Below, one piece after another: positions 12,836 through 48,369 of a DNA stretch of 64,000 bases. The notes beneath the pieces are model-generated. The model made no database searches, had not been told where the DNA came from, and saw only the letters and a program-made list of their open reading frames with translations. Position 1 is the stretch's first letter; each line of letters begins with the position of its first letter. The translations under genes were made by a program, and so were the position numbers. This stretch comes from Candidatus Thermofontivivens primus (lineage in GTDB: Bacteria > Sysuimicrobiota > Sysuimicrobiia > Sysuimicrobiales > Thermofontiviventaceae). Location of the stretch: positions 2,967-66,966 of the forward strand of contig JAVKJW010000008.1 in the NCBI GenBank assembly GCA_031458695.1, read 5' to 3'.

Positions 12836-12886
12836 CAGCTTCCCCCAGGGGGATAGGTGGAACGTGGAGGCTTGGGAGAGGGAGAG

Positions 12887-15018: not shown

Positions 15019-15119
15019 CTCGGTCCCATCTTATCCTCAGTTTCACCATCACGCAAGAAGATCTAGGAGGTTTTTCGGGGCTCTCTCAAGAAAAAATCAG
15101 ACATCTACAGGAGGTACTG

Positions 15120-16892: not shown

Positions 16893-16906
16893 GTCAGGGG
16901 GAGGGA

Positions 16907-18157: not shown

Positions 18158-18256
18158 TGGGGGAGGAGCCCCAGCAAGTTCTCGTTTGCGCAAGATTTCG
18201 CCGGGACTCTGTTCTGAGGGTGCTAGACTCATCAACAAAAGGAAAGGAGGGAGAAG

Positions 18257-19093: not shown

Positions 19094-19100
19094 AGGGGAC

Positions 19101-22710: not shown

Positions 22711-22859
22711 TCAGGGCGGAGAGGCCGTAGACGGAGAAGTTACAAGAGGGAGGGAGGCTCCTCCCGCTGTGGAGTACCATAGGCAGGAGGAGCCTCGGAC
22801 CCTCATGGAATGATCACCCTGGTGCAGGACCCAGCTGTGGGGTGGCGCCGGAACCCGCA

Positions 22860-24116: not shown

Positions 24117-24130
24117 AGCATCCCCCCTAC

Positions 24131-25111: not shown

Positions 25112-25673
25112 ATCCAGAACGTAAGCGCTGCGCAGCGTCCCGGACGGCGTCGATGATCCCCTGGTACCCTGTACAGCGGCAGAGGTTTCCGGCGAGGACC
25201 TCGCGGATCTGTTCATCGCTGGGCTCTGGGTTCTCTCGCAGGAAGGCGAGGGTGCTCATGAGGAACCCAGGGGTACAGAACCCGCATTGCAGGGCGTGGT
25301 GGTCCCGGAATGCTTCTTGGAGAGGATGGAGGCGCTCCGGTGTTCCAAGCCCCTCTACGGTCGTGATCTCAGCCCCATCAGCCTGGACGGCGAAGAGGAG
25401 ACAGCTGCGCACGGCCTGGCCATCGAGGAGGATGGTGCAGGCTCCACAGACCCCATGTTCACAGCCGACGTGGGTGCCCGTCAGCCCGAGTTCGTGTCGG
25501 AGGAAGTCCACCAGGGTCATACGGACATCTACGGTGGAGGTATACTCCACCCCGTTCACCCGCAGCCTGATCTCCTTGCGCGTCCACAAGGGGGGAAGGG
25601 AGACCTTAGCTTGCTTGGACCTTCTGGCCTGCGGGGTTCTCCGCGATGCATTTGTCTGGGCTCTCCTCTTCAT
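25101..25673 (-). CDS. (2Fe-2S)-binding small subunit of xanthine-dehydrogenase/CO-dehydrogenase family (CoxS-like)
   Basis: CEHGVCGACT and CGFCTPGF...CRCTGY cluster motifs. A ~30-aa N-extension suggests the true start may be an internal alternative codon. Confidence 0.85.
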   Translation of the reverse strand: MKRRAQTNASRRTPQARRSKQAKVSLPPLWTRKEIRLRVNGVEYTSTVDVRMTLVDFLRHELGLTGTHVGCEHGVCGACTILLDGQAVRSCLLFAVQADGAEITTVEGLGTPERLHPLQEAFRDHHALQCGFCTPGFLMSTLAFLRENPEPSDEQIREVLAGNLCRCTGYQGIIDAVRDAAQRLRSGYGA

Positions 25674-26545
25674 GCTCCCTCCCTCTGTTTGAACCTTTCC
25701 GCAGCTAGGCGAAGGGCACGCCCGGCGAGGATGCCCGCGACTTCCTTGCGGTAGGTTGCTGAGGCATGGATGTCGCTGTGGGGATCCAGGCGAGCGGCCA
25801 CGATGCGCGCGATTTCCCCAAGCGTGGAATCGTCAAGGGGCCTCCCGGTAGCCGCTTCTTCGGCTTCGGGGAGCCGTACCGGCACAGGGCCCACGCCTGT
25901 GAACCCCAAGCGGGCTTCCGTGCATCGTTCCCCATCCATCTGGACCATCGCCGCCACCCCGACGAGCGCATAGTCCCCATGCCGCCGGGCAACTTCAAGG
26001 AATGCCGTCCCGTATGTCCGGTGAACGGGGAAGCGAACCTCGACCAGCAGCTCCTCGGGTGCGAGGGCCGTCTGCAGGAAGGAGACGAAGAACTCCTCAG
26101 GACGGAGGACACGCGTCCCTTCGAGCCCTCGAACAACGAGCTGCGCTCCCAGGACAAGGGTAACGACAGGGAGCTCCGCAGCAGGGTCTGCGTGCGCGAG
26201 GCTCCCGCCTACCGTCCCCCGGTTACGGATCTGGGGATGGCCGATGTACCGGACTGCTTCGGCAAGGAGAGGAAGTTTCTCCCGCACGAGGCTGGAGAGC
26301 TCGACAGCTCGCTGGCGGGTCATCGCCCCGATGGAAACCGTCGCGTCCTCGTCATGGATGTAGGAGAGTTCGCGCACGCGATTCAGGTCGATGAGGACCG
26401 AGGGGCGCGCCAGGCGCATGTTGAGCAAAGGGACGAGGCTCTGGCCGCCGGCCAGGGGTTTTCCCTCCTCCCTGAAGGTGTGCAGGAGGACAAGGGATTC
26501 CTCAACGGTCTCAGGTGCGGTGTACTGGAAGGGAGCTGGTTTCAT
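25670..26545 (-). CDS. FAD-binding medium subunit of XDH/CODH family (CoxM-like)
   Basis: MKPAPFQYTAPETVEESL...AGGQSLVPLLNMRLA. ATGA overlap with coxL at 26542-26545. Confidence 0.9.
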   Translation of the reverse strand: MKPAPFQYTAPETVEESLVLLHTFREEGKPLAGGQSLVPLLNMRLARPSVLIDLNRVRELSYIHDEDATVSIGAMTRQRAVELSSLVREKLPLLAEAVRYIGHPQIRNRGTVGGSLAHADPAAELPVVTLVLGAQLVVRGLEGTRVLRPEEFFVSFLQTALAPEELLVEVRFPVHRTYGTAFLEVARRHGDYALVGVAAMVQMDGERCTEARLGFTGVGPVPVRLPEAEEAATGRPLDDSTLGEIARIVAARLDPHSDIHASATYRKEVAGILAGRALRLAAERFKQREGA

Positions 26546-28932
26546 CGCGGAGATTTCGCCTCCTTGCTCCTCTCTCGTGCCGTCCGGATGATCTCCAGGA
26601 GCCGGTTTGGGCTCAGGGGCATCTCGGTGATCCGCACGCTGAACTCGGCAAGGGCGTCGTCGATCGCCGAGGCAAACACCGCCGGAACAGGGATGGTACC
26701 CGCCTCCCCCGCTCCCTTCACCCCGAGGGGGTTGAGGGGGGAAGGAGTCTCCACGTGGGCGATCTCGACCTCGGGGACCTCCATCGCTGTAGGGAGCAGG
26801 TAGTCCATGAACGTGCGCGTGAGAAGCTGCCCGTTTTCGTCGTAGACGAGCTTCTCGTAGAAGGCGTTGCCGATGCCCTGGGCGACCCCGCCCCGGATTT
26901 GCCCATCCAGGATCATGGGGTTGATGATGCGACCGCAATCGTGCACGACGACATACTTGAGGATGTTGATCATCCCGGTGTGGATATCCACCTCAAGGAT
27001 AGCCGCGTGGACACCGTTGGAGAACGTCCCTCGGGGCGGGGCGAAGTACCGGGTTGCCTCTAGCCCTGGTTGCTCCCACTCCTCAGGGATGGTTCCGCGG
27101 AGGGGGTTGGCGGCTACGGCGATCTCGCCGAGAGAGAGGGACCTTCCAGGCACGCCGCGGACGAACACACGGCCATCCCGCAGTTCCAGGTCCTCGACGC
27201 GGGCCTCCAGCAGAGTAGCGGCGACGCGCAGGGCCTTCTCTCGGACGGCCTGCGCGGCAAGTGCGACCGCGTTGCCGGCAACCACGGCGGCTCGGCTGGC
27301 AAAGGTTCCAGTCCCCCAGCTGAATGCCCCGCTGTCTCCCGTGGTGATGGTGACATCCTCTACTGGCACGCTGAGGATGTCGGCGATGATCTGAGCGAAG
27401 GAGGTGAAGTGTCCCTGCCCCTGAGTGCCCACGCTAGTCGCTGCGTACACCTTCCCAGAGGGTTCCACCGTCACCCGGCACCCCTCGTACGGGCCGATCC
27501 CGGAGCCTTCCACGTAGCAGGCCAGGCCAAGCCCAACATACCTCCCCTCGCGCCGGTAGCGTTCACGCTCAGAGGGCCAACGATCGTATCCGATCATCTC
27601 CAGGGCCTTTTCCAAGCACGCCGGGTAATTCCCGCTATCGTAGATCAGTGGTGCATTGTCCTGATAGATCAGGCCGACGTCGTAGGGGAACTCGTCTGGC
27701 TGGATGAAGTTCCTGCGGCGGACTTCTGCCCGATCCAGGTTCAGCTCTCTGGCGACCCGGTCCATCAACCGCTCCATCACGAACACTCCGTGGGGCCTTC
27801 CAGCACCACGGTATGGGCTCACAATGGTCTTATTCGTGAACACCGCACGGAACTCGCAGTGGTAGTTGGGAATCTTGTAGGGTCCTGGAAGAGTCGTGCT
27901 GGCCACGATGGGGACGATGAGGCCATAAGGGATGTAGGCACCGGCGTCATAAAGGAAGACGGTCTTGACGCCCAGGATGCGTCCCTCCTTGTCCACGGCG
28001 ATGGATGCTTCATGGATTTGCTCGCGCTCCTGGTTCATGGCCACGAAGTTCTCCAGGCGATCCTCGATCCACTTCACCGGCCGCTCCAGTTGCATTGCCG
28101 CGAATGGGACCACAACCTCCTCAGGGTAGAACATCATGATCTTTGGTCCAAAGCCACCCCCGATATCCGGTGCAATCACCCGCACGCTCGACTGGGGGAG
28201 CCCGAAGAGCCTGGCAAGCCCATTGCGGATGGGGATCGGCGCCTGGGTGGAGTCCCACACTGTGAGCTGGCGCATCTTAGGCTCCCACTGGGCCACAACG
28301 CCGCGACACTCCATAGGTGCAGCAGTACCACGATCGATCACGAACCGCTCGGTAAAGACATATGCTGCCTTCGCGAAGGCCTCCTCCACGTTCCCGACCC
28401 GCTGGGTGTAGTGTGCGCAGACATTCGTCCCGGCATCCTCGTGCACGAGAGGGGCATCGGGCTGGATCGCTTGCTCGAGATCCACCACGGGCGGGAGGGG
28501 ATCGTATTCCACCTCGATGAGCTCGAGAGCATCCTCGGCGACATAGCGATTCTCGGCAATCACAACAGCAATAGGCTCGCCGACGTGGCGGACCTTATCA
28601 GGCGCGAGCGCGTACTGGGTCTTGTGGTGGATAAGGGCAGGGTGGGGAATCAGCTTAGGGAGTGGCTCCTGTAACGCAGGGGGAAGGTCGGCATGGGTGT
28701 ACACTGCGACAACCCCTGGGAGAGCTCGCGCCTTCTCCGTTCGGATCGAGAGGATGCGAGCATGTGCGAATGGGCTGCGCAAGAAGGCAGCGTGCAGGAG
28801 GCCAGGGGGTCGGATATCATCGACGAAGGTCCCACGGCCTGTGAGGAGGCGGGGGTCTTCGTTCCGTTTGATGGGTTCACCAAAGTACCTCGTCACCATA
28901 CTCTCACGACTCTCCCCGGGACGTTCGTTCAT
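26542..28932 (-). CDS. molybdopterin-binding large subunit of XDH/CODH family (CoxL-like, form-II-type motif)
   Basis: 796 aa with IVSPYRGAGRPHG (AYRGAGR-like form-II motif), and a typical aldehyde-oxidase/XDH a/b hammerhead plus MoCo domains. Confidence 0.9.
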   Translation of the reverse strand: MNERPGESRESMVTRYFGEPIKRNEDPRLLTGRGTFVDDIRPPGLLHAAFLRSPFAHARILSIRTEKARALPGVVAVYTHADLPPALQEPLPKLIPHPALIHHKTQYALAPDKVRHVGEPIAVVIAENRYVAEDALELIEVEYDPLPPVVDLEQAIQPDAPLVHEDAGTNVCAHYTQRVGNVEEAFAKAAYVFTERFVIDRGTAAPMECRGVVAQWEPKMRQLTVWDSTQAPIPIRNGLARLFGLPQSSVRVIAPDIGGGFGPKIMMFYPEEVVVPFAAMQLERPVKWIEDRLENFVAMNQEREQIHEASIAVDKEGRILGVKTVFLYDAGAYIPYGLIVPIVASTTLPGPYKIPNYHCEFRAVFTNKTIVSPYRGAGRPHGVFVMERLMDRVARELNLDRAEVRRRNFIQPDEFPYDVGLIYQDNAPLIYDSGNYPACLEKALEMIGYDRWPSERERYRREGRYVGLGLACYVEGSGIGPYEGCRVTVEPSGKVYAATSVGTQGQGHFTSFAQIIADILSVPVEDVTITTGDSGAFSWGTGTFASRAAVVAGNAVALAAQAVREKALRVAATLLEARVEDLELRDGRVFVRGVPGRSLSLGEIAVAANPLRGTIPEEWEQPGLEATRYFAPPRGTFSNGVHAAILEVDIHTGMINILKYVVVHDCGRIINPMILDGQIRGGVAQGIGNAFYEKLVYDENGQLLTRTFMDYLLPTAMEVPEVEIAHVETPSPLNPLGVKGAGEAGTIPVPAVFASAIDDALAEFSVRITEMPLSPNRLLEIIRTARERSKEAKSPR

Positions 28933-31441: not shown

Positions 31442-32278
31442 ATGCTCTTGGCAGCCCAGGCTGGTAGCCTCCTTACGCGTATCCGCGAAACTCGCCCTTT
31501 GGTCCACCACCTTACGAACTTCGTCGCGATGAATGACGTAGCGAACGTCACCCTTGCCACTGGTGCGCTCCCGATCATGGCCCATGCTCCCGAGGAGATG
31601 GAAGAGGTCGTTTCTGCTGCCTCCGTCCTTGTACTCAACCTAGGCACATGGACGCAGGAGAGATGGGACGTGATGCTTCTTGCGGCACGCATCGCCAACA
31701 GGCGTGGGATCCCGGTTGTCCTGGATCCCGTGGGCGCGGGGGCCTCTCGAGTTCGTACGGAGAGTGCACTCAAGCTCCTCCGCGAGAAGCGTGTCACCGT
31801 GGTAAGAGGCAATCGGGGAGAGATCGCCTACCTCACGGGGGCGCTCGCGAGCGTCAGGGGGGTGGAGTCCCTGGGGTCGGACGTCCCTCCCCAGGATTTG
31901 GCCCAAACCCTGGCCCGGGAACATGGGTGCATTGTTGCGGTTACGGGCCCGCGCGACTGGATCAGCGATGGGAAACGCCTCCTCGCCGTGGACAACGGGC
32001 ACCCCCTCCTCCAGAGAATCACCGGTTCCGGGTGTATGGCCACGGCGGCCATCGGCTGTTTTCTCGCTGTCCCCGGAGATCCTCTCATCGGCACCGCCGC
32101 AGCCCTGGCCTATTTCGGGTACGCTGCCGAGCTGGCAGCGAGGGATTCCAAAGGGCCAGGGAGTTTCCGGGTATCTCTGCTTGACCACCTTGCCTTGCTC
32201 GATGCAGCTTCTCTGGAGGCAGGGGCGCGGATCCTGGAGGATTTCGATCCTGGTGGAGGGCCTCAGGGATCCGGGTGA
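31442..32278 (+). CDS. thiM: hydroxyethylthiazole kinase
   Basis: HHLTNFVAMNDVANVTLATGALPIMAHAPEE...VDPVGAGAS...ITGSGCMATAAIGCF is a ThiM-like sequence. Confidence 0.85.
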   Translation: MLLAAQAGSLLTRIRETRPLVHHLTNFVAMNDVANVTLATGALPIMAHAPEEMEEVVSAASVLVLNLGTWTQERWDVMLLAARIANRRGIPVVLDPVGAGASRVRTESALKLLREKRVTVVRGNRGEIAYLTGALASVRGVESLGSDVPPQDLAQTLAREHGCIVAVTGPRDWISDGKRLLAVDNGHPLLQRITGSGCMATAAIGCFLAVPGDPLIGTAAALAYFGYAAELAARDSKGPGSFRVSLLDHLALLDAASLEAGARILEDFDPGGGPQGSG

Positions 32279-34458
32279 GGAAAGCCCGCGAGGACGCCGA
32301 AGGGGGAGAGCAGCGTCTTCGCTGCTTCCAGGACGAGCTCGCTGTATTTCTGCACATCGTAGCTCCAGCCGTCCTGCAGGAGAGCCCACGGCTTGGCCCG
32401 CTCCTCGGGAATCCTGCTGCGGAAGTCGGTGATGACGTACTGTACGGCCTCTCCAGGGTGAAGCCGGACCCCGCGGCGGGCGAGCTGGCGGGCAGCGATG
32501 GCGAGGAGGGTTTCGTGGGTGTAGGACTCCGGGGGTTTGGAGAGCACCTGTTGGATGACGAGGTCCCTCAGCGTGACGTCGCCGTCTCGCAGCCGTGCCA
32601 AGAAGGTTTCCACCACAGCGACCACTTCAGGGAGCCGCTCTTGGAGTTCGTGAAGGGTGCTGGCGGAGGCCAGGACCTCCACCATGCGCTGTTGCGCCTC
32701 CCGCACAATGGGGGGGAGGTCCGAACGCCGGAGCTCAATCCCCCGCACTTTTACAGTCCCGTCCTCGAAGACGCCCACGAAGCGGTTAGGGACCCCCAGG
32801 CGACGACGGATCCTGGACGGGATGAAAGCGATCCAGCGATAACGACCCTCTAGGAGGATGGGAATCCCTGTGGCCTCTGTGATCTCCTGAACCAACGCCT
32901 CCACCTCCTCTGGGCAGCTGCCAGCCTTATGGATCCAGAGGGAATCCACGATGGCATGGAGGAGGCGGAATCCCCGTGACTCGGCGAGTTCTTTCGCCCG
33001 CAGCAACAGCTCCCGGCTGTAGGCAGTAACGGCTTCGTGCGCCTCGATCCTTCCGAACCGGGCGTTCCGGTATCCGAGGTAACCGAAGCACGTCACAAGA
33101 CACCACTTCAGGGCGTTCTGGCGGTGCTCGTAGACTATCCGCTCCTCCCCTGGGGTCTGCCGCATGAGGTGCTTGTAGGCAAGACGTTTCTCAATCAGCG
33201 GCGCGAGCACCTGGGGGATCAATCCCTTCCTCCTCCGGCACACAGAGTACCCAATCTCCGGAACGCGGTGGTCTGGGCAACACGCGCATCCCAGCGTCTC
33301 GGGGGAGATGTTGAACCGCGCCATGATCATGGGGTACATCGAGGCAAAATCCAGCTCAAACACGTCCTCGTAGACGCCGATCGGAGGAAGGTAAACGAGC
33401 CCCCCTTTGTCCGTACGGAGGAGTTCGAGGGCCGACTTGAACTCCTCGGCCTGGCGTTTCCGCCAGGGGATGAGGATCCCCTGGCGGACCGCCGTGTCCA
33501 GCTGCATGGAGGTGATTGCCGTCCCTGTGGTGGTCCGCGCGAGGCGTTGTACTGGGATCTTTGCTAGGCGAGCGACCTCCACCAACCCTTCGAGGCCGCT
33601 CTCCCCCATCAGGAAAGAGTTCACAGTATCGACGTGCAACCGCCCTCTGAAGAGTTGGGCTCCTGCACGATAGACCCACCGGCCGTACGTGTAAAAAGAG
33701 TACCCTCGCCGAGCTAAGGTCGTCCGCTCGCGGTTGAATGGAAGGGGAATCCCAGTCATCCGGCTGAGGCGCTCCAGCCGGGGGATGAGGAAGGAATCCC
33801 CCCACTCCGTCAGGATGATGTCGGGGTCGTACCGGGTGAACAGCGAGCGCAGGCTCTCCAGGAGATCTACGGGCCCGTCCCCATCGAGAACGATGGTCTG
33901 CCCCTCTATCGTTGCCTCCAGGAAACTCCTCCGGCCGTGGGGGGCGATGATCGGGTCTCCCTCCAGCCGGAGGTGAATCATGGTGAGGGGCGGAAGGTGG
34001 TAGGAGAGATCCCAGGGGGAGTCCTCCAGTGCAATGGCTTGGACGGTTCCCTGTTCGTGCTCGATGGCGCAGCGGGCCAAGGGGAAGAGGCCGGACTCGT
34101 AAAAGTAGAGCTGCTCCAGAGGGATGTCCACGTTGAATAGCTCTATCCCTGGGATGTTTGCAACCAAGCGCACCATGGAAGGGAAGTGCGCAGGCGAAGT
34201 TGTCAGCTCGATCACAGGCCGCTCCCTTCCACTGAAGAAGTCGACCCTGCTGGTCGTGCGCAAAGTCACGGGGGCGCGGCATCGCTGGAGAACGGCCTCC
34301 ACCTGGCGGCGTACCCTTGGAGGACCATCGGCATAGCAACGGAGGGAGACAGGGTGGGTGAGGCGGAGGCGGCGGCCTTGCCCGTCTATGAGCCAGAGGA
34401 CCATCCCTCTCTCCCCAGGGTAGGCGTCAAGGATCCACGCGGTGATCTGCTCGCCCAC
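32263..34458 (-). CDS. family-B DNA polymerase (Pol II-like) with degenerate exonuclease motifs
   Basis: Motif A LDFASMYPMIM and motif B KWCLVTCFGYLG are present, and motif C is reduced to AIVDS. Exo I reads HLRLEG (vs SIDIET) and exo II reads WGDSFLIPRL (vs QFDLRML). Start is uncertain: GTG 34458 just before the conserved ITAWILDAY, or ATG 34566/34611. Confidence 0.8.
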   Translation of the reverse strand: MGEQITAWILDAYPGERGMVLWLIDGQGRRLRLTHPVSLRCYADGPPRVRRQVEAVLQRCRAPVTLRTTSRVDFFSGRERPVIELTTSPAHFPSMVRLVANIPGIELFNVDIPLEQLYFYESGLFPLARCAIEHEQGTVQAIALEDSPWDLSYHLPPLTMIHLRLEGDPIIAPHGRRSFLEATIEGQTIVLDGDGPVDLLESLRSLFTRYDPDIILTEWGDSFLIPRLERLSRMTGIPLPFNRERTTLARRGYSFYTYGRWVYRAGAQLFRGRLHVDTVNSFLMGESGLEGLVEVARLAKIPVQRLARTTTGTAITSMQLDTAVRQGILIPWRKRQAEEFKSALELLRTDKGGLVYLPPIGVYEDVFELDFASMYPMIMARFNISPETLGCACCPDHRVPEIGYSVCRRRKGLIPQVLAPLIEKRLAYKHLMRQTPGEERIVYEHRQNALKWCLVTCFGYLGYRNARFGRIEAHEAVTAYSRELLLRAKELAESRGFRLLHAIVDSLWIHKAGSCPEEVEALVQEITEATGIPILLEGRYRWIAFIPSRIRRRLGVPNRFVGVFEDGTVKVRGIELRRSDLPPIVREAQQRMVEVLASASTLHELQERLPEVVAVVETFLARLRDGDVTLRDLVIQQVLSKPPESYTHETLLAIAARQLARRGVRLHPGEAVQYVITDFRSRIPEERAKPWALLQDGWSYDVQKYSELVLEAAKTLLSPFGVLAGFPHPDP

Positions 34459-34714
34459 GATTCCTCTCCAGGGAATCCAGCCTGCGTTCAAGAGATCGCA
34501 CCCGCTTGAGTGTCTCGAGGAGCATGCAAACCAGCATCGTTTCGAAGGGAACTGGGTGGCTGGCATAGGCGGCTTCGGCAGAATGGTGCCGTGCTGCTTC
34601 AAACAGCTCATCCAGGACCTCCTGGTCCTCTCGCCGCAACGCCCTCCGGAACGGCATCCAGCGCTCGATCTCTTCCAGAACGAGGTTGGTCATGGTACGC
34701 AGCGTCCGTCCCAT
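34427..34714 (-). CDS. hypothetical 95-aa protein, middle gene of the SOS operon
   Basis: Sits between the ImuA-like gene (6-nt gap) and polB (overlap). Predicted helical, no family recognised. Confidence 0.55.
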   Translation of the reverse strand: MGRTLRTMTNLVLEEIERWMPFRRALRREDQEVLDELFEAARHHSAEAAYASHPVPFETMLVCMLLETLKRVRSLERRLDSLERNRGRADHRVDP

Positions 34715-34720
34715 CGCACC

Positions 34721-36773: not shown

Positions 36774-37259
36774 TCAGAATGTAGCAAAGGGGACGATTCC
36801 TGTCTCGCCGATAGCATAGATCACCAGAGGGCCCTGGCGCGCACCGTCCATGCCCGGTGATCCTGGAGGCATTCCCGGCAAGGCGATACCTTTGATCTTC
36901 GGCTTCGTCTGGAGCAGCTTTGTAATCGCTGCGGCAGGGACGTGCCCTTCTACGAAATAGTTTCCCATGATCAGGGTGTGGCAGCTGCGCATACTCTGTG
37001 GAATTCCCCATCGATCCTTAATCTTCTCAGGATCCTGCACCGGCATCAACCTGATGCCGAAGCCCGCGGACGTGAGGTAATCCGCGTAGCTCCTGCAGCA
37101 CCCTCAGGTGGGGGAGAAGTAGATGTCCCCCACGATAGGTTTCCCCGGTTGCGCAGCACGTGCACTCTCCAGGAGCTGTGGGGACAGGGCTGCAAGCATT
37201 GCGGTGATCACTCCGACCAGCAGGGCTGCTTGCACAGCGCGCTTCTGAGCGGGACGCAT
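36774..37259 (-). CDS. DUF411/CopG-like secreted metal-binding protein with in-frame TGA at the conserved CxCC motif (candidate selenoprotein)
   Basis: Manual translation of the minus strand gives MRPAQKRAVQAALLVGVITAMLAALSPQLLESARAAQPGKPIVGDIYFSPT[TGA]GCCRSYADYLTSAGFGIRLMPVQDPEKIKDRWGIPQSMRSCHTLIMGNYFVEGHVPAAAITKLLQTKPKIKGIALPGMPPGSPGM... A GAGGAGG RBS precedes ATG 37259. The TGA at 37104-37106 replaces the first Cys of CxCC. Confidence 0.6.
37062..37092 (-). promoter_or_regulatory. candidate SECIS-like hairpin 14-42 nt downstream of the in-frame UGA
   Basis: mRNA GCUACGCGGAUUACCUCACGUCCGCGGGC folds as a 6-bp stem CGCGGA/UCCGCG (extendable to ~9 bp with a bulge) with a 10-nt loop. It does not match the E. 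coli fdhF SECIS loop. Confidence 0.25.
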
Positions 37260-37286
37260 GCACGTACCTCCTCGCAAGTGATCTCA

Positions 37287-37308
37287 CAAGAATCCCCCAG
37301 GATTCTTG
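37287..37308. other. perfect inverted repeat CAAGAATCC-ccca-GGATTCTTG (9-bp stem)
   Basis: Lies 28 nt upstream of the DUF411 gene start, in the intergenic region after the PepSY-like gene. No U-tract follows, so it is not a canonical terminator. Confidence 0.4.
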
Positions 37309-37449
37309 CGGGGGCCTCGACACGAGATGGGGCGGCCCTTGGGCCTCGGCCCAGGGCGCGCCCCTTCCCAAGGTCATTCGGAGTACCCCGGCAAAACTCC
37401 TTCGACTCCTGCCGGGGCTCACCTGAAAAATCGGGGATACTTGGACGCA

Positions 37450-38169
37450 CTAGTCAAGCTCCTTCTCCCGGATAAAGTCCCCGTGCCAGTAGTGGTACCA
37501 CACCGCGCCTGTGTAGCCGTTGACGCTGAGCATGCCTACAATCTTCCCCCCACGGGCCACGTGGATCGTATAGTACCCGTAAAAGGTGTGGACATCCTCC
37601 GCGGTCGCCCCGGGCATGACCGTTGCAAGGTAGCGGTTGGCGATCTGCTTCGCCTGTTCCTTCGTCACGGGCATGGCTGAGGGCGGAGTGATCCGTGTAG
37701 GCGCTTGGTACCCCCACCGTGGGCCCCAGCCAAAGCCACCCATCATACCGTAGCCACCTCGCCAAGCAACCATATGACCGTATTTCGTGTTCCACATCAT
37801 ATTCGGGCCAGGCTCGGGGTAGACAGCACCGGTGAATCGATCGACGAGTAGCTCAAACGCGCCGATGCCGGTGCTTTTCTCCTTCACGACGACGTAGAAA
37901 TTCCGAGTGAACTCCATGATCTCTTCCAATATGAGGTCAGGGTTGCCATAGGAGGCAACAGCCTGCCGGGCAATCTCCACGGCGCGTTCCAGCGAAATCG
38001 GCTGGGCATTCGGGGGAACTGCTCCCCAAAAGCCAAAGTGGGGACACGCCCCAGGACCGTATCCCCCCATCATCCATGGGCCAGGCCAATACGGCTGGGC
38101 AAATACGGGGATTGCAGAAACGAGTACCCCTGCGATGGCAAGGATCCAGGCGAACTTCTTCACCCTCAT
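37450..38169 (-). CDS. secreted PepSY-like protein with Gly/Met/Trp-rich repeats
   Basis: Signal peptide MRVKKFAWILAIAGVLVSAIPVFA, followed by ISLERAVEIARQAV (PepSY-like) and repeats such as MMGGYGPG and GGYGMMGGFGWGPRWG. Confidence 0.55.
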   Translation of the reverse strand: MRVKKFAWILAIAGVLVSAIPVFAQPYWPGPWMMGGYGPGACPHFGFWGAVPPNAQPISLERAVEIARQAVASYGNPDLILEEIMEFTRNFYVVVKEKSTGIGAFELLVDRFTGAVYPEPGPNMMWNTKYGHMVAWRGGYGMMGGFGWGPRWGYQAPTRITPPSAMPVTKEQAKQIANRYLATVMPGATAEDVHTFYGYYTIHVARGGKIVGMLSVNGYTGAVWYHYWHGDFIREKELD

Positions 38170-38477
38170 CACCCCTTCCTTGGTAGTCTTATCTCTGAGG
38201 TCATCCCCCTCCACTACTGATCCTACGAGAGGGATATGAAGAATCTTTGAAGGGAAAATGGGAAGATTGTGAAAGGGCTTCAGGTGGTGTCTGAGAGAGG
38301 GAAGCGGCGAAATGCCTGCTACCACCTACACCGAACCAGTACACAAGAAGGTGGGCGTCCTATCCTCGGAAATCTTCCCCAAAAATCGGGTCTTCGCCCG
38401 ATGGTGAGCGTGTCCATTGTGGAGTATCTTTTCTTAGGAGATCCTTACGAATCCTGATAGGGTATCCTTAGAAAGCG

Positions 38478-42749: not shown

Positions 42750-45700
42750 TTACCTGACTTTCACGAGCTTCACTCGTGTATCGTAGAAGACCGCGCTGCC
42801 ACCGGTGAGGTCTACGAGGCAGGTATTCTTGAGATACGGGTCTATCCGCATGGCGGCGTTTGCATGCACGCCTGTACGCCGCCTAGGATCGCCTTTGATC
42901 ACCTTTCCGTCCACTACGATGTCTGTGGACCCATAAGCCCAGTGCCCATTTCCGAGGGAGAAGGAAATGACTCCAGGTCGCATTCCTTCCACGACTTTCA
43001 CTTTGCCAACCATTGGGACCTGTTTCCCGTTCCCCACAGGCCAGACGCCCTCCGGGTTACTCGCAGAGGTGATGCGCACAAGGTCTCCTTCCGAAAGACC
43101 CAGCTTCTCTGCGTCCCGTTTGTTCATCACCACAAAGTTCTCCGGGTAGATCGAGAGGAGCCAGTAGTCTGCAATGGTCCGGCTTTTGGTGTGGAAGATC
43201 TCCCGGTGGGTGATGAGGTTCAGGGTGTATCCTGCAGCCTCGTCGGGGATCGGCCGGCCGAGGGAATCTGTGATGGGGACGTACGTGGCGATACCCAGGA
43301 AGGGTTTCCCAGCCATAGAGTTCTTGGTCTCCGCAGCTTTTTCAGAGTACAGGTTGATCAGGGTCCCATACTTGTGCCGTACCTTTTCCCCTTCGTAACC
43401 TTGCTCGTAGTCTTCAAACCGGCCGCCCCGGTTGAGGACGTAGATCACCTTGGGCCACCAGCGATCCCCCACGATGCGCCGCCAGCGGTTCGGGTCGAAG
43501 ACGCTCTTTGGAAGATGGGACCGCGCGCGGAGGAAGAGATCGACCTCCGCGGCATCGGCGTCTGGAACTTCCTCTCCAGGCGCGTCCCCGGCCGCTACAT
43601 TGGCTACCATGCGGAGGTAGAGATCTTCCGGGCGGCGGAAATCCAGCCCGGGTCCGAAGGCATCCTTCCCAAATCCTGGAAGCCCCATCTTCTCTGCAAT
43701 CCCGAGGATCAGCGCCTCTAGGGAGAGGGGGATCTCCTCTCCGAACACCCTCACCGTCCTGGGGATCGGCGCTACAACAGGCGAAAAGATAGGCTGGACC
43801 TTCTGGGCTACAGACGGGTGGGACCCCATGAACTCCCACCGTTCCAGGTAGGTCAGGTCCGGGAAGATGTAGTCGGCATACATGGACGTCTCGCCCACGG
43901 TGATGTCACAAGCCACAACCAGCGGGATCTTTGCAGGATCCCGGAGGATCTCAATGTTGGTGTGGCCTGCGGGCAGGCTGTAAACCGGGGAACCCATATA
44001 GAGGAATAACGCCTTGATGGGGTAAGGATACCCGTCGCCAGCGGAGGGGATGATCTCCTGATAGATGTCACTGGCGAGAGGATACCAGGGCCGCTTGGCC
44101 GGGTATCCGCTGAAGAGCGTGGACTCCTCGTACTTGACTTCGTGGCGGATGATACTGATCCCGAAGGGCTTCATCTTCCCCGCCATCGCGCTGAGGTCAA
44201 AGGGCTTGGGCGGCCTTCCCCCGACGATGTCGTAGGTCGTCGCCTTGATCATCCCGCCCTTCCAGTCGAAGTTCCCCACCAGCAGGTTGAGGGACATCCA
44301 GGCGAGGACGTTGTAGAAGCCGTTGGTATGCTGGGAGACACCACGGTGGATGTCAACGGCTGCCTGCTTTCCGTAGCTCGTGAACTCCCATGCCAGCTCC
44401 ACGATGTCCTGTTCCTTGATCCCGCACAGCTTGGCCCAGGCCGCCAGCGTGCGGGTCTTGCTGGACTCATACAGGACCTGGAGGCCGCTCTTCACTCGAA
44501 TCCCGCCGATCACAGTGTCCACGAGGAGATCCCCTTCCACCGGGGTCTTCTCGTCGTACGGGTCGAAGGCTACAGGCTTGCCATCGCGGAGGACGACGAA
44601 CTCGTCTTTCTCGGATAACCCAATCTCTTTCGCCCGCAGGAACCTTCCTGGCCGGCCATCAGGGCCAATCTTGATGAGCCAGGTTGCATTGGTCCAGGTA
44701 GGTTCTCCGTCGGCTTTCGCCGCACCCTTATTGGCGTTCTGGAGGTAGCGGGCGTCGTAGCGCTTGTTCTCAATGATCCAGCGGATCATCCCGAGGGCGA
44801 GAGCTGCCTCGGTCCCCGGCTTGATAGGGACCCACTTCCAGGCCTTAGCCGCGGTCTTGGAGAGCCTGGGATCTACGACGGCGATCTTGAGGCGCCCATG
44901 TACGATGCCGTCGGTGATCTTGCTGGAACGAAGAGGCGGGCCGTAGTTTCCCTCGAATGGGGATGCACCCACAAAGATGATGAACCGGGCGTTTGCCGTG
45001 TCTGCCTGCCAGTAGAACTTCCGCCCTCCCGTCCACTTCCCCCCAATGTACTGCTCGCTCATGGCTTTGCAGGTGAAGTAGAGGGAGCCCTGGCAGACCG
45101 TGGTATGGCCGTGGGCGTTTACCGACCCAAGCGCGTCTCCGGTGAAGCGCTTGATGAGATCGCCGCGCCCACCCTTCAGGCGACCCCACATGAACACAAA
45201 CTGGTTGTTCTTCGGCCCGAGGTCGGGGTGGTCGGGGTCGATAAGGAGGTGGAGGTGCTCCCGGTGCTTGGCCTTGAACTCCGCCACGGTCATCTCTTTC
45301 TTCTTGATCTTCTCTACATCAGCGGCCAGAGCAGCGGCAAGCTTTGGATCCCGCAGGGCCCAGATCTCCTTTAACCCTTGTACGTAGCGGTTCTCCTCTC
45401 CTGGGACATCCTTGAACAAGTAGCCACCATTGACGATCTCCTCAATCGCTTGTTCGAACGAAATGGTTCGCCACCGGTTGGATCCCCGTGGCCCGGCCCG
45501 CTTGAGGACGGCCCGGAGGCGGTAGGGGTCGTACAAGGTTTGGATTCCAGCCTGTCCCTTCGGGCAGATCGCCCCATCGATGCGGGCGGTGTCAAAGGGG
45601 GAGGCTGTATAGGGGAGATGGGGGGTCATCGTCCAAGGGCTCTGCGGGTTTCCGTCGATCTTGACGACCACACCCTGGAGGAGCTTCACTTTAATCCCAC

Positions 45701-45929
45701 ACCCTGTGTTGCACTGGAGGCAGACAGTGCGCAAGATGTTTTCCGGACGAGAGAGCTCATAGAGGGCACTCCCCTCTCCCGCCTCGGCCTGGTGGAGGAG
45801 TTCAAACGCCCTGTCGATGCGGCGTAGGAGGAGGGCTGAACCTCCCAGGAAGGCCGTGGTCTTGAGGAATTCCCGCCGGGTCATGGGGAGGTCCATCTTT
45901 GGAGATTCCTTCAATGTGCTCCTTAGCAT
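42750..45929 (-). CDS. Tat-exported molybdopterin oxidoreductase catalytic subunit (tetrathionate/polysulfide reductase TtrA/PsrA-like, ~1059 aa)
   Basis: Twin-arginine signal [15 protein letters not shown] and N-terminal [14 protein letters not shown] [4Fe-4S] motif, with large MopB and molybdopterin-binding domains. ATG 45929 follows GGATAGGAGGGGGAAG. Confidence 0.85.
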
Positions 45930-45939
45930 CTTCCCCCTC

Positions 45940-46836
45940 CTATCCATGGCAGACCTGGCAGTTCTTCTTGACGTCTTCAGCGATGTAGTAAACCCTTGGC
46001 CGGGTCCCCAGGTTCGCGTTCACCTGCATATGGGGATTCCGGCGGAGGAGATCGGCGACGAGGCTCCTCTTGTCGGAGATGTCCCCAAAGTACATGGCCC
46101 GGCCAATGCAGGTGGTCACGCAGGCCGGAAGCATCCCGACCTCCAGACGTTGCAGGCAGAAGTGGCACTTCCGACCGGCGCCAATGGGGAGTTGCCCCTC
46201 CATCCGCGTCCATCGCTGGCCGTACTCCACATGCGGTCGAGTCTCATATGCCTGGAGCCTCGGCGTTCCCTGAGTCCAGTATTTCCCATCATCGAAGTAG
46301 AGCGCTGTGTAAGGACAGGCCTTCGCCGCGGCCTCGAAGGCCTTGCGGGTGCGGAACTTGGTGTAGTCAACGACCACGATGCCATCTGGCCGTTTAGAGA
46401 TCGCCCCGGGAGGGGCTGCCTTCATACAGGGTGGATTGTCGCACTGCTGGCAGTTTGTAGGCATGAATACCCGCCTGACTGCGGGATATTCCCCGACTTC
46501 TACCTCTGGAACGGTGCGGTAGGAGACTCCAGGGGGGAGCCTGTTTTCTGCGATACAGGCCACCACACAGGCGTTGCACCCGATGCACTTGCGAGTGTCA
46601 ATGACCATCACCCACTGGCGCTGTTCCACAGGCTTGCGCAACGCCCTCTCCAGGTCCTGCTGCATGCGCAGGACTTCATTGTCGGTAGAGAACCGTTCTT
46701 CCGCACTTGCCCGCCGTTCCGTGGTGACCCCCTTCAGGACAGTTCCCACTTCCGCTGCGACGACCGTGGCCGCAGCAGAGATCACGCCCCTCAGCAACTT
46801 GCGTCGCGTCGCCTTCCCTTTGCAAGGTTGGCTCAT
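45940..46836 (-). CDS. Tat-exported 4Fe-4S ferredoxin-type subunit (TtrB/PsrB-like)
   Basis: [11 protein letters not shown] Tat motif and multiple CxxCxxCxxxCP clusters. ATG 46836 is preferred (AGGAGG-5nt-ATG) over GTG 46842. Confidence 0.85.
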
Positions 46837-46858
46837 AGCCACCTCCTGGACTTGCGGA

Positions 46859-47950
46859 TTACTTCTTCCGCTTCCCTAGGCTGTGGATCCCCTTCGCATA
46901 CTGCGCAGCCCACTTCACCGTCTTGTCCTGGTGGCACTGCAAGCATGCGAAGTCCAGGGTCACGTAGTGCTTGGCAAAGGCTCCGTCAGGGGTGAACATC
47001 TTCGCCTCAGGGTCGGTCTTAATCAGGAAGAGGTGGGTCTTTACATCGCCCTTGTATGGACCCAGGCTTACTGCCGATTTCGTGGCCATAGGCATGTGGC
47101 AATCCACACACCTGACCCCGACGCGTTGCATTGTGCTACCAGCGAAGGCGGCCTGAGCAGCAGAATGGCAGGATGCACAGGTGGTGCGGATAGAGAACTC
47201 TGCCTTCTTGTGGGGGTCGTGACAGTCCACGCACGCAAGCTTGCGATGCGGGCTGGCGAGGTGTTCATTGAACTGCTCGTGGTGCTGGATAAACCCACCT
47301 ACAGCGGGAATGGTTGTCGCTTTGCCCCGGATATGGCAGTTGCCGCAGAACCAAGCGGAGCGATCCGTGGCGATCAGCTTCTTGTCTCCTCCTGCCGCGA
47401 TATGCGCCTGGCCGGGGCCATGGCAGGATTCGCACCCCACGCCAGGGAATACCCATGTGCCTACGATGCCGGGGAGGCCACCCTGGCTTCCCTCAGGCGA
47501 ATACCCCGTGGTGTGACACCGACCGCAGTCATATTTCTTGACCTTCCCGGCCTCGTAATCTGCCCAGGCTCCGGTCATCAGGTTATATTGGTTCTTTCCT
47601 GGTTTCCCGGCTGCGGTGGTGATGAAGAACCCTTTCTTGTCGAGGTAACGTGCCTTCCACTTGTATCCCCCCACGACGTAACTGATGTCGTCCCAGGAGT
47701 ACCCGGCAGGCAAGGGGAGAGGCATATTCTTCGCCTGCTCAGCGGGGATCAGGATATAGGGATGACCGGAGACCTTCCAATCGTTGAACTCCCCAGGGTG
47801 GCACTTGAAGCACGCTTCCGACCCTGCATACGGAGATGTTGCTACTTGCCCGGAGGCGGTGCGGAAGGAGAAAACAGAGGGTGCAAACATGACGCTGACC
47901 AGGAAGATCAGCACTCCTACGATGAGGAGAATCCCACGCGCCCTTCTCAT
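46859..47950 (-). CDS. membrane-anchored octaheme c-type cytochrome
   Basis: Eight CxxCH motifs (CFKCH, CGRCH, CESCH, CGNCH, CVDCH, CASCH, CVDCH, CLQCH) and an N-terminal TM anchor ILLIVGVLIFLVSVMF. Confidence 0.85.
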   Translation of the reverse strand: MRRARGILLIVGVLIFLVSVMFAPSVFSFRTASGQVATSPYAGSEACFKCHPGEFNDWKVSGHPYILIPAEQAKNMPLPLPAGYSWDDISYVVGGYKWKARYLDKKGFFITTAAGKPGKNQYNLMTGAWADYEAGKVKKYDCGRCHTTGYSPEGSQGGLPGIVGTWVFPGVGCESCHGPGQAHIAAGGDKKLIATDRSAWFCGNCHIRGKATTIPAVGGFIQHHEQFNEHLASPHRKLACVDCHDPHKKAEFSIRTTCASCHSAAQAAFAGSTMQRVGVRCVDCHMPMATKSAVSLGPYKGDVKTHLFLIKTDPEAKMFTPDGAFAKHYVTLDFACLQCHQDKTVKWAAQYAKGIHSLGKRKK

Positions 47951-48369
47951 CGAGCTCACCTCACGCGCTGGAGGTTTTTCCTTCAACCCTCGTATCTCCA
48001 ATTCCACCCCTTCTTAGCTTATCGGTGAACCTGGAGCATGAGAATCGAACTAGAACTTGATTCTCCATGTGGTGGTCCACAATTTTGCCTCCTACTCAAA
48101 TCCGATGACCAATGTGGTCTTGATGCATGCGTATCGCACAGCGAAGGAAATAGATCTTCGATCTCATCGCGACCACTGGTGGGTAGAAGACAACCTCCCT
48201 CGCCGATCGATGAGGAGGATCCCTTGCCACAATCTGGCGCGATCTGTTCGCAGATCTCATTCATGATCCTTGTGCTGCTAAGCCGGCCTTGTTTCCTTGC
48301 CGAACGAAGGAGCTCTTTGAGGCTGCTAGGACCGATGGAGGGAGGTCCACGTGATTCCAAGGGGAGCGC

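Follow-up and report, generated by a model that had tools for sequence, protein, structure and literature searches.

A probable selenoprotein form of the CopG/DUF411 copper protein, with selenocysteine at the first cysteine of the CxCC motif

The 64-kb stretch of DNA analysed here (hereafter the window) carries a gene of the CopG/DUF411 family whose reading frame contains a UGA at codon 52. Its product is very likely an exported copper protein with a thioredoxin fold, bearing selenocysteine (Sec) instead of the first CxCC cysteine and thus reading U52-G-C-C. This reading, which had been put forward in a first-pass annotation of the same DNA, is supported by the near-universal presence of Cys at the affected column of the family, by the recurrence of the TGA in related genes and by the selection acting on the sequence that follows it. 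We infer that Sec is the residue inserted at UGA-52, and the conclusion that Sec-type CopG proteins form a new selenoprotein family is well supported.

Gene structure and family assignment

The gene and the RNA elements discussed below all lie on the minus strand:

36774..37259, minus strand: complete coding sequence of a DUF411/CopG-type protein, 161 codons including UGA-52 (translation, Pfam and PDB match)
37267..37273, minus strand: Shine-Dalgarno sequence GAGGAGG, 7 nt 5' of the ATG (read from the sequence)
37155..37259, minus strand: predicted Sec-type signal peptide or membrane anchor, codons 1-35 (by eye from the translation)
37104..37106, minus strand: UGA in frame at codon 52, proposed to specify selenocysteine (translation and alignment)
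37095..37106, minus strand: U-G-C-C, selenium variant of the CxCC copper-cluster motif, with C54 and C55 invariant (aligns with CGCC of 6WIS)
37059..37093, minus strand: hairpin 1, candidate SECIS, stem of 13 pairs containing one bulged A, apical loop of 8 nt (folds)
37042..37058, minus strand: hairpin 2, which follows hairpin 1 immediately, stem of 7-8 bp, loop GGU (37049-37051)
36978..36983, minus strand: codons of C93-H94, invariant in DUF411
36936..36950, minus strand: codons of E104-G-H-V-P108, the EGHVP motif conserved in DUF411
36849..36872, minus strand: codons of M130-P-P-G-S-P-G-M137, whose two invariant Met are candidate copper ligands

Translation from the ATG at 37259-37257 to the terminal TGA at 36776-36774 gave one frame that is open on both sides of a single in-frame TGA, so that the earlier description of one gene broken only at this codon, and preceded by a strong ribosome-binding site, holds in both respects. 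The product matched the Pfam family DUF411 (PF04214; E = 1e-24, 86.5 bits, cut-off 27) and, over residues 41-150, the CopG structure 6WIS (E = 8e-24), which bears out the proposed family assignment. The conserved body reported for the protein (GHVP and MPPGSPGM) was likewise found, as EGHVP and PGMPPGSPGM, and is near-invariant across DUF411. Seven residues (C93, H94, E104, G105, P108, M130 and M137) do not vary among the homologs, 99% of which also have H106, and the window protein has every one of these residues.

Read by eye, the N-terminus consists of MRPAQKR, a hydrophobic stretch and then ARA/AQ. Comparable hydrophobic N-termini were found in all Sec-type homologs, that of the homolog L018 being lipoprotein-like (AAGC), and the N-terminal sequence suggests that the window protein is exported. 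In the window, the DUF411 gene comes after a Met/Gly-rich PepSY-like gene, with feoAB nearby, while in the relatives L012-L014 it comes after molybdopterin oxidoreductase clusters.

At the column occupied by the TGA, 98 of 99 full-length DUF411 homologs have Cys, and the remaining one (P0036) has Trp (SPTWECC). The alignment thus places the TGA at the first Cys of CxCC, a motif that the first-pass annotation had given correctly. The absence of an encoded Cys at this position is the only departure of the window motif from CopG/DUF411, and the motif would be chemically preserved if either Sec or Cys were inserted at UGA-52.

Recurrence of the UGA in related genes

The first-pass annotation had suggested looking for Sec-containing orthologs, and TGA-bearing homologs were indeed recovered, by a search with the C-terminal 90 residues alone and then through truncated gene calls. 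The same column carries TGA in seven distinct genes (the window gene and six others) from five lineages, and over 12 assemblies obtained independently of one another show it (L001-L006, L010 and L012-L019). The TGA is kept in the copy from GCA_031432505.1, which differs from the window gene at 2 nt, and in L001-L005, each of which comes from a different assembly (ENA, JGI or Logan) and which have 77% amino acid identity; further carriers are L012, L013, L014/L015, L016/L017 and L018/L019. Seven of the eight truncated DUF411 gene calls tested contained the TGA, and the eighth (L020) proved to have an ordinary Cys and a mis-called start. Scans of genomes and metagenome contigs with the whole window protein returned only distant Cys-type archaeal relatives.

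The Sec-type genes span a GC content of 48-71%. Four of the seven distinct genes (window, L012, L013 and L014) are on Armatimonadota-labelled MAGs or same-context assemblies, and the L018 lineage is probably Chloroflexota. Sec and Cys types are interleaved in the DUF411 tree (L001 with P0001, L013 with P0015, L014 with P0061, and L016 with P0082/P0236), and a close Cys-type relative is present for four of the five Sec-type lineages, the exception being the most divergent one, L018. These pairs of close U and C homologs have 74-86% identity over the domain.

A generic scan for in-frame TGAs within open frames gave 101 hits and was uninformative in a window of 60% GC. The neighbour of the DUF411 gene in L013 is CMD/AhpD-like, from a family with known selenoproteins, but its frame is uninterrupted.

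Selection downstream of the UGA

In the comparison of the window gene with L001, dN/dS over codons 53-161 was 0.14, and a value of about 0.33 was obtained for L012 versus L013. On this substitution pattern, the region downstream of the UGA is translated and under purifying selection. Between the window gene and L001, dS was 0.07 for codons 53-75, as against 1.29 for codons 76-161 (Fisher p = 1e-4); when this test of synonymous sites was repeated with L012 and L013, the result went in the same direction and was not significant (p = 0.21). Within the 66-nt zone after the UGA, 7 of 9 changes fell on the branch of the Cys-type gene L011, compared with 17 of the 74 parsimony-assigned changes outside the zone, where 7 further sites were ambiguous in parsimony (p = 0.002 for the contrast), and the L011 changes in the zone disrupt stem pairs. 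By these comparisons, RNA-level constraint after the UGA is specific to the Sec-type genes.

Downstream hairpins and their fit to the bSECIS model

A stem-loop of 6-9 bp had been reported past the UGA, and of this description the stem-loop itself is real but its size is not: the 13 pairs of hairpin 1 form a lower stem that starts 10-12 nt past the UGA and a 7-bp upper stem (-9.9 kcal/mol) that starts at 17 nt. The apical loop (UACCUCAC, 37072-37079) lies 24 nt past the UGA and has no G at positions 1-2. The window gene and L001 differ at 2 of the 66 nt in the zone, and one of these differences turns a U-G pair into U-A. Hairpin 2 is identical in L001, the Cys-type L011 loses two of its G-C pairs, and L012-L014 have a hairpin of different sequence in the same position.

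We compared these elements with the published bSECIS model, which has a loop of 3-9 nt, a stem of 4-16 bp, G at loop position 1 or 2, a spacing of 16-37 nt and a minimum free energy of at most -7.5 kcal/mol (PMC13188914). The window gene and L001 fit in stem, loop length, spacing and energy and lack the loop G, and the G-containing loop of hairpin 2, at about 52 nt from the UGA, is outside the range of 16-37 nt. For the window clade, the suppression of synonymous change seen only in Sec-type genes supports a functional RNA element independently of the model. L012, L013 and L014 fit the model in every respect (spacing 18 nt, 5-nt G-first loop, 8-10 bp), with hairpins of -13 to -19 kcal/mol that were matched by at most 1.4% of shuffles. 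L016 and L018 have G-first loops (GGUGC and GGUC, respectively) at a spacing of 16-19 nt; their hairpins are weak (-6.2 and -5.1 kcal/mol versus the model limit of -7.5), and their 66-nt folds are no better than shuffles. In the L016 lineage, Cys-type and Sec-type proteins differ mainly at residues whose codons form the hairpin.

A two-hairpin fold was found in the five high-GC Sec-type genes (z = -1.9 to -3.7), and three Cys-type controls gave z = -0.6 to +0.4 in the same test. Taken alone the bSECIS model is permissive, as the Cys-type control L020 passes it too. An 8-bp hairpin just upstream of the UGA (37108-37133) was considered and not counted towards the signal, given its location 5' of the codon and the partial presence of similar pairing in the Cys-type L011.

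Compared with E. coli-type bSECIS elements, those of L012-L014 are alike in all four published criteria, and those of L016 and L018 in spacing and in having a loop that begins with G. The elements of the window gene and L001 differ in having an 8-nt loop (6-8 nt in L001) that is G-less at positions 1-2, with a spacing of 24-25 nt, and in being followed by another conserved hairpin, whose loop is GGU. In L018, the loop (GGUC) equals the apical loop of fdhF. According to a review, some bacterial SECIS elements fall outside the bSECIS model.

Selenocysteine or cysteine at codon 52

Neither the 64-kb window nor about 150 kb of relatives' loci contained selA, selB, selC (tRNA-Sec) or selD; likewise, ARAGORN and Rfam detected neither tRNA-Sec nor any other RNA family across the window, and ARAGORN detected no tRNA-Sec in 12 of the relatives' loci. 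Support for Sec machinery comes from the level of the phylum: Armatimonadota MAGs with Sec-type hydrogenases carry canonical selC, and five of five Armatimonadota genomes with UXXU-type hydrogenases have, alongside canonical selC, tRNA-ReC-like tRNAs, which read UGA as Cys given a downstream SECIS (PMC13582414). With such a Cys-inserting tRNA on record in the phylum alongside tRNA-Sec, residue 52 could sometimes be Cys.

The UGA might accordingly be recoded via SECIS and SelB with Cys inserted by a tRNA-ReC-type tRNA, either always or when selenium is scarce; this would make the product a normal CopG with a CxCC motif, and the UGA a regulatory or conditional device. The Armatimonadota setting of four of the seven Sec-type genes is in keeping with this, and the comparative evidence (dN/dS, dS, folds, SECIS fit and branch test) suits either residue equally. 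However, canonical tRNA-Sec occurs in those same Armatimonadota genomes, the present MAG accessions were not found in the literature searched, and the L018 lineage is probably Chloroflexota. Among Sec-type genomes that lack the UXXU motif, only about 2.3% had tRNA-ReC (PMC13582414). If Cys were always inserted, it would moreover be hard to explain why a costly UGA and SECIS have been kept in five lineages beside close relatives with TGC or TGT. We therefore regard insertion of Cys as an unlikely account of this gene.

Pseudogene, error and genetic code

A pseudogene, or an assembly or sequencing error (e.g., TGC or TGT to TGA), would mean that only a 51-residue peptide or a 90-residue C-terminal fragment is made. 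Gene callers do split the DUF411 gene into ORFs of 51 and 90 aa in every assembly, the 90-residue C-terminal fragment is annotated in GenBank, and Sec machinery was not seen within the window. Against this, the identical TGA recurs in seven distinct sequences, drawn from over 12 independent assemblies, dN/dS past it is 0.14, and synonymous constraint past it occurs only in TGA-bearing genes. In addition, the invariant C54 and C55 sit between the TGA and the annotated restart, the restart codon is not conserved between lineages, and the N-terminal part encodes the predicted signal peptide that the C-terminal domain needs. The pseudogene or error alternative, which the first-pass annotation had itself raised, is effectively refuted, and we assign it very little probability.

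Even less probable is genome-wide reassignment of UGA (to Trp or Gly, as in codes 4 or 25) or near-cognate or suppressor read-through without Sec machinery, for which the Trp of P0036 (TGG, or TGA under another code) might speak, given that TGA terminates about half of the well-supported window genes, which have normal-length Pfam matches, so that the genetic code is standard, that in-frame TGA in all seven Sec-type DUF411 genes is restricted to one Cys column, and that Trp or Gly at a position with Cys in nearly every homolog would delete a cluster ligand.

Predicted fold and proposed mechanism

We modelled the Cys-type sister P0001, which is 74% identical to the window protein over the domain (pLDDT 87.9, >95 in the domain). 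The best PDB matches of the model were 6WJE and 6WIS (TM 0.87-0.89, rmsd 1.8 Å), with thioredoxins next; it has a helix at residues 13-31 in the N-terminal segment and places the Sec-equivalent Cys between strand b1 and helix a1. As modelled, the DUF411 protein has the thioredoxin-like CopG fold. According to a review, CxCC together with two adjacent Met binds the tetranuclear (Cu4) cluster of CopG, and this cluster and a role in copper resistance are known for the Pseudomonas protein only (PMC7558416). Copper binding by the window protein may be proposed by analogy with one characterised homolog of 37-39% identity.

With Sec as the residue at codon 52, we propose that UGA-52 would be recoded rather than read as a stop, the 66-nt downstream RNA (hairpins 1 and 2) recruiting SelB with Sec-tRNA(Sec). 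The full 161-residue precursor would be made and exported via its N-terminal signal sequence, and in the mature domain of about 126 residues, U52, C54 and C55 would join with the conserved Cys-His and Met residues to form a multinuclear copper site. The selenolate would take the place of the thiolate at the position where thioredoxin-fold CxxC proteins have their nucleophilic Cys. With its lower pKa, higher nucleophilicity and easier reversal of oxidation, it might tune copper binding, or the proposed Cu(I)/Cu(II) redox chemistry, to an anaerobic way of life; a chemical advantage of selenium at position 52 is suggested on these grounds. In the window clade, Sec insertion would be directed by a non-canonical SECIS with a G-less apical loop and a second conserved hairpin, and in Armatimonadota that also have tRNA-ReC, the codon could yield Sec or Cys according to selenium supply, giving two chemical forms of one copper protein. 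We lean only modestly towards this combined picture, in which Sec-52 ligates a multinuclear copper cluster, the family occupies at least two phyla, the window clade uses a non-canonical SECIS and Sec or Cys is inserted by selenium supply.

Relation to known copper proteins and selenoproteins

The window protein and CopG of Pseudomonas aeruginosa (6WIS, 6WJE) have in common their homology, fold, motif position and N-terminal export signal (predicted here), as well as the invariant CC, Cys-His, EGHVP and two Met. In contrast to P. aeruginosa CopG, the first CxCC Cys of the window protein is encoded by UGA (UxCC), the Sec-type hosts are Armatimonadota and probably Chloroflexota MAGs instead of Proteobacteria, and the window gene is outside any copA/cus/cueO cluster.

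Thioredoxin-fold selenoproteins likewise have Sec where helix a1 begins, in place of the N-terminal Cys of the active site, a mosaic distribution of Sec and Cys among close homologs and a coding-region SECIS hairpin just past the UGA. Sec-type CopG differs from them in belonging to another Pfam family (PF04214) and in its UxCC motif, with a one-residue spacer and a Cys pair, the Cys form of which builds a metal cluster and not a redox disulfide. Metal-handling selenoproteins predicted by the same logic of Cys/Sec pairs include an SO_0444 family Cu/Zn efflux transporter (UxC), CopZ-family proteins, a cation-transporting ATPase (UxxC) and a YHS-domain protein (PMC13188914). These, too, are metal-homeostasis proteins with Sec inside a metal-binding motif rich in Cys, whereas their families and folds are unrelated and none is a CopG-type multinuclear copper-cluster protein. 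The 119 selenoprotein families inventoried in 2026 do not include DUF411/PF04214, and none of the NCBIfam selenoprotein models matches the window protein.

Implications

Because new selenoprotein families are regularly found and the recoding mechanism is standard, the finding should be of moderate surprise to a specialist. Sec-type DUF411 genes are recorded by GenBank and metagenome pipelines as fragments of 49-85 aa and about 90 aa, an annotation that can now be corrected, and the occurrence of canonical and non-canonical downstream elements among related genes may be useful for refining bacterial SECIS models. The natural pairs of U and C homologs offer a ready system for studying what selenium contributes in anaerobes, whether to the binding of copper or to Cu(I)/Cu(II) redox chemistry. 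Sec-type CopG adds a family to the prokaryotic selenoproteome and, if the proposed reading is true, would be a natural copper-selenolate cluster protein and a selenoprotein family present in at least two phyla.

In-frame TGA at the first cysteine of the CxCC motif

The first-pass annotation had described a single DUF411/CopG gene with a GAGGAGG ribosome-binding site, interrupted by one TGA and open in frame on both sides, and our translation agrees with it. The features are as follows.

ATG 37259 to TGA stop 36776-36774, minus strand: DUF411/CopG gene, 161 codons (translation)
7 nt upstream of the start, minus strand: Shine-Dalgarno sequence GAGGAGG (direct reading)
37106-37104, minus strand: internal TGA, codon 52, the sole in-frame TGA within the gene

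Codon 52 lies in the context GDIYFSPT-TGA-GCCRSYADYL, and the frame remains open through to the terminal stop. When the TGA was read as Cys, the translated protein matched PF04214 (DUF411) in Pfam (E = 1e-24, 86.5 bits, cut-off 27); the solved copper-resistance protein CopG (6WIS/6WJE) was matched at E = 8e-24, with SPT-C-GCC of the window protein opposite DAN-C-GCC of CopG in the 6WIS alignment. Alignment with 99 full-length homologs bore out the CxCC motif given in the first-pass annotation, the TGA column being Cys in 98 and Trp in one. The two Cys following this column are invariant, and C93-H94, EGHVP and both Met of PGMPPGSPGM are invariant or almost so, as had been proposed for the body motifs GHVP and MPPGSPGM. 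The sole homolog lacking Cys at the critical column, P0036, reads SPTWECC; its W is one base from TGA and could represent a TGG mutant, or a TGA under another code used by the source pipeline.

Identity of the inserted residue

A Sec-type CopG, with selenocysteine at codon 52 (U52), is in our judgement the probable explanation of this gene. A rival reading keeps the same recoding route but has Cys inserted by tRNA-ReC, a tRNA that reads SECIS-dependent UGA as Cys. Support for Sec machinery is indirect: Sec-type group 4 hydrogenases have been reported from Armatimonadota MAGs, and the five Armatimonadota genomes with the UXXU motif all carry canonical selC and also tRNA-ReC-like tRNAs (PMC13582414, 2026). 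The latter make Cys a serious alternative to Sec at codon 52, though one that we regard as unlikely. No selA, selB, selD or tRNA-Sec was found within the 64-kb window, nor tRNA-Sec or SelA/SelB/SelD-type Pfam domains in the fetched loci.

TGA-bearing relatives

Sec-containing orthologs had been suggested as a check, and a TGA at the CxCC column was found in seven distinct genes in all, several of the assemblies being independent and the loci ranging from 48% to 71% GC. Two matches of 90 aa from the initial homology search span only the post-TGA part, and the DNA of both carries TGA at the same column. The gene in GCA_031432505.1, an Armatimonadota MAG assembled separately from the window, has the TGA and is otherwise only 2 nt different from the window gene. 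Five assemblies obtained independently from ENA, JGI and Logan contain a 77%-identical TGA ortholog (loci L001-L005; identical or 1 nt apart). A second search used the C-terminal 90 residues alone, so that truncated gene calls rank equally with full-length proteins; fragments of 72-103 aa made up about 28 of the best 120 matches. The DNA of six further fragment genes was then examined.

CxCC region of the six further fragment genes (loci L012-L020)
L012, GCA_031459855.1: YQPPT-TGA-ACC
L013, GCA_031459385.1: YQPPT-TGA-ACC
L014 / L015, GCA_964437095.1 / Logan: YQPPT-TGA-PCC
L016 / L017, ENA / GCA_044232495.1: YNSPT-TGA-GCC
L018 / L019, ENA: FQPAA-TGA-GCC
L020, JGI: KSPTCSCC, ordinary Cys with a mis-called start (negative control)

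The L018 lineage is probably Chloroflexota, as judged from the gene adjoining DUF411 (76% identity to a Dehalococcoidales protein, 60-73% to Chloroflexota proteins). In GenBank, TGA-bearing DUF411 genes are entered as fragments. Sec-type and Cys-type genes are interleaved in a neighbour-joining tree, where L001 is nearer to the Cys-type protein P0001 than to the window gene and Sec/Cys pairs are formed by L013 with P0015, L014 with P0061, and L016 with P0082 and P0236. Cys/Sec pairs scattered in this mosaic fashion are what typically marks a genuine selenoprotein family.

The possibility raised earlier of a pseudogene or sequencing error was not borne out and is very improbable, given the same TGA at the same column in seven distinct genes, independent assemblies included, and a dN/dS of 0.14 over codons 53-161 (window versus L001), a value which also indicates, at the level of sequence, that the part after the TGA is translated. 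Other read-through or a code reassignment is scarcely credible against the use of TGA as the normal stop of about half of the window genes, these with full-length Pfam matches; genetic codes 4 and 25 are ruled out for the same reason.

RNA-level selection after the TGA

Between the window and L001, dS was 0.07 in the 23 codons directly after the TGA versus 1.29 in codons 76-161 (one synonymous change at 15 sites versus about 38 at 61 sites; Fisher P = 1e-4). We further compared the 66 nt following the UGA codon with the remaining gene: the two Sec-type genes (window and L001) differ by 3% in this zone versus 24.5% elsewhere, whereas L001 and the Cys-type L011 differ by 10.6% and 11.9%, respectively. 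Parsimony assigned to the L011 branch 7 of 9 changes in the zone versus 17 of 74 outside it (P = 0.002; the 74 are those placed on a single branch, with 7 more sites ambiguous), and the L011 changes disrupt hairpin 1 (37059-37093) at two pairs and hairpin 2 (37042-37058) at two G-C pairs. These results point to an RNA-level constraint tied to the TGA. L012 and L013 follow the same trend (dS 0.15 versus 0.48), which is not significant with few sites (P = 0.21).

Candidate SECIS elements

Two consecutive hairpins lie straight after the UGA in the high-GC loci (window, L001, L012, L013 and L014; z -1.9 to -3.7), and the same folding gave z of -0.6 to +0.4 for three Cys-type controls. This architecture occurs in two clades with differing sequences and differing encoded amino acids. 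The bacterial SECIS (bSECIS) model specifies a loop of 3-9 nt, a stem of 4-16 bp, G at loop position 1 or 2, spacing of 16-37 nt and MFE <= -7.5 kcal/mol (PMC13188914).

Hairpins downstream of the UGA
L012, L013, L014: spacing 18 nt; loops GCAGC / GCCGA / GCGGA; stem 8-10 bp; -13 to -19 kcal/mol
L016: spacing 18-19 nt; loop GGUGC; stem 6-7 bp; -6.2 kcal/mol
L018: spacing 16 nt; loop GGUC; stem 5 bp; -5.1 kcal/mol
Window, L001: spacing 24-25 nt; loop UACCUCAC (L001: UACCUCAA / ACCUCA); stem of 7-8 contiguous pairs, 13 counting the lower stem; -9.9 / -11.0 kcal/mol
L020 (Cys control): spacing 22 nt; loop CGUAC; stem 8 bp; -7.8 kcal/mol

L012, L013 and L014 agree with the model throughout, equalled by <=1.4% of shuffles, and L016 and L018 in spacing and loop, with weak stems. 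L020 also passes, by chance, and the model alone is therefore permissive. L012-L014 close the hairpin with a C-G pair and L016 with U-A, both sides having changed, and in the L016 lineage the substitutions between the Cys-type (CGCCHEYEKYLEENGFEVEP) and Sec-type (UGCCHGYGAYLEDNGAEVET) proteins fall mostly in hairpin-forming codons. Our conclusion is that the DUF411 Sec-type family probably carries SECIS elements. The loop of the window and L001 hairpin lacks the G of the model, and the GGU loop of hairpin 2 in the window clade is some 52 nt away from the UGA, beyond the model range; the window element appears to be a SECIS that is non-canonical in one respect, its function supported by selection and not by model fit.

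Other structures were observed around the gene. A perfect 8-bp hairpin (GUGGGGGA ... UCCCCCAC; 37108-37133, minus strand) ends 1 nt 5' of the UGA codon, has weaker forms in L001 and L011, and may simply be due to the GD...SPT codons. The 5' region of the DUF411 mRNA (37270-37367) contains a perfect 9-bp inverted repeat (37287-37295 / 37300-37308), a second pairing that flanks it and overlaps the Shine-Dalgarno sequence (37270-37278 / 37305-37313), and a 20-nt imperfect inverted repeat (37326-37367). L001 has a different hairpin in their place, and these repeats could terminate transcription of the upstream gene or sequester the ribosome-binding site.

Genomic neighbourhood

In the window and L001-L005, DUF411 comes after a PepSY-like gene rich in Met and Gly, with feoAB close by. 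Two neighbours in the window are listed here.

37450-38325, minus strand: exported protein of 239-291 aa, directly 5' of DUF411
42750-48007, minus strand: molybdoenzyme cluster (TtrA-like molybdopterin oxidoreductase, TtrB-like Fe-S subunit, multihaem cytochrome)

The former has Met/Gly-rich stretches (PWMMGGYGPG, GGYGMMGGFGWG), only faint PepSY similarity and no NCBIfam match; because its position beside Sec-type DUF411 is kept in L001-L005 and L010, it may be a functional partner. The molybdoenzyme cluster lies 5.5 kb from DUF411, and its oxidoreductase (1065 aa) scores below the TtrA cut-off. In L012 and L013, a cluster of Fer4_11, NrfD and molybdopterin oxidoreductase genes immediately precedes Sec-type DUF411; in L014, three genes and a gap of about 300 nt separate it from such a cluster, and a nos cluster lies 5 kb away. 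The link with anaerobic respiratory molybdoenzymes may be a recurrent association or mere synteny among relatives, and the context fits an anaerobic respiratory lifestyle, not a classical cop operon.

Several further features were noted. NosZ of L014 (15229-17156), upstream of nosD/F/Y, is split by the gene caller into ORFs of 459 and 178 aa that differ in frame and are separated by 11 nt; this probably reflects a frameshift or an assembly error and not a stop codon within the frame. In this genome labelled Armatimonadota, a small DUF8156 gene stands before a gene for a family B DNA polymerase (32263-34715, minus strand; 782 aa, archaeal-type PRK05761 models), and the pair is kept in L001/L002. 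ARAGORN called a 90-nt 'tRNA-Thr (tgt)' at 16026-16115 of L001/L002 and 7547-7636 of L003, on the opposite strand within a resolvase gene beside an IS605 OrfB/TnpB (Cas12f-like) gene; the call is unlikely to be a true tRNA and may reflect a structured RNA belonging to the mobile element. A methylated-DNA-protein-cysteine methyltransferase (12857-13426, plus strand), a family in which Sec forms are known, has an ordinary Cys at its active site (PCHRV). Positions 14943-28932 hold a large, ordinary-looking purine or oxamate catabolism cluster (AllG and AllH oxamate carbamoyltransferase subunits, CoA ligase, cyclase, Bmp-type ABC transporter and xanthine-dehydrogenase family subunits).

Predicted function and novelty

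The fold was read from the Cys-type sister P0001 as modelled with confidence by AlphaFold (pLDDT 87.9 overall, >95 in the domain). The model fits CopG best (TM 0.87-0.89, rmsd 1.8 A), and thioredoxins and glutaredoxins come next. In it, the counterpart of U52 is a Cys located between strand b1 and the N-terminal end of helix a1, where thioredoxin-fold CxxC proteins have their nucleophilic Cys. CopG itself is thioredoxin-like and periplasmic, with a tetranuclear copper cluster bound by CxCC and two adjacent Met; it contributes to anaerobic copper resistance and has been proposed to oxidize Cu(I) to Cu(II) and hand copper over to other proteins (review PMC7558416). The window protein is probably exported, because its basic-hydrophobic N-terminus, read by eye, ends in ARA|AQ. 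The product would most likely be an exported CopG with a selenolate in place of one cluster thiolate, and we infer an effect of selenium on its copper chemistry.

Our literature search retrieved no paper joining DUF411, or CopG in the bacterial sense, with selenocysteine; a 2026 review table of 119 prokaryotic selenoprotein families or subfamilies lists neither DUF411, PF04214 nor CopG, DUF411/CopG is likewise absent from the deep-Sep and BSepDB papers, and NCBIfam, including the selenoprotein-specific NCBI models, gave no match to the window DUF411 protein. The earlier observation is confirmed and the selenoprotein reading supported. Sec-type CopG/DUF411 therefore adds a new family to a familiar type of system. 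The surprise is moderate, as UGA is recoded here by a standard mechanism and selenoproteins that handle metals had already been predicted.
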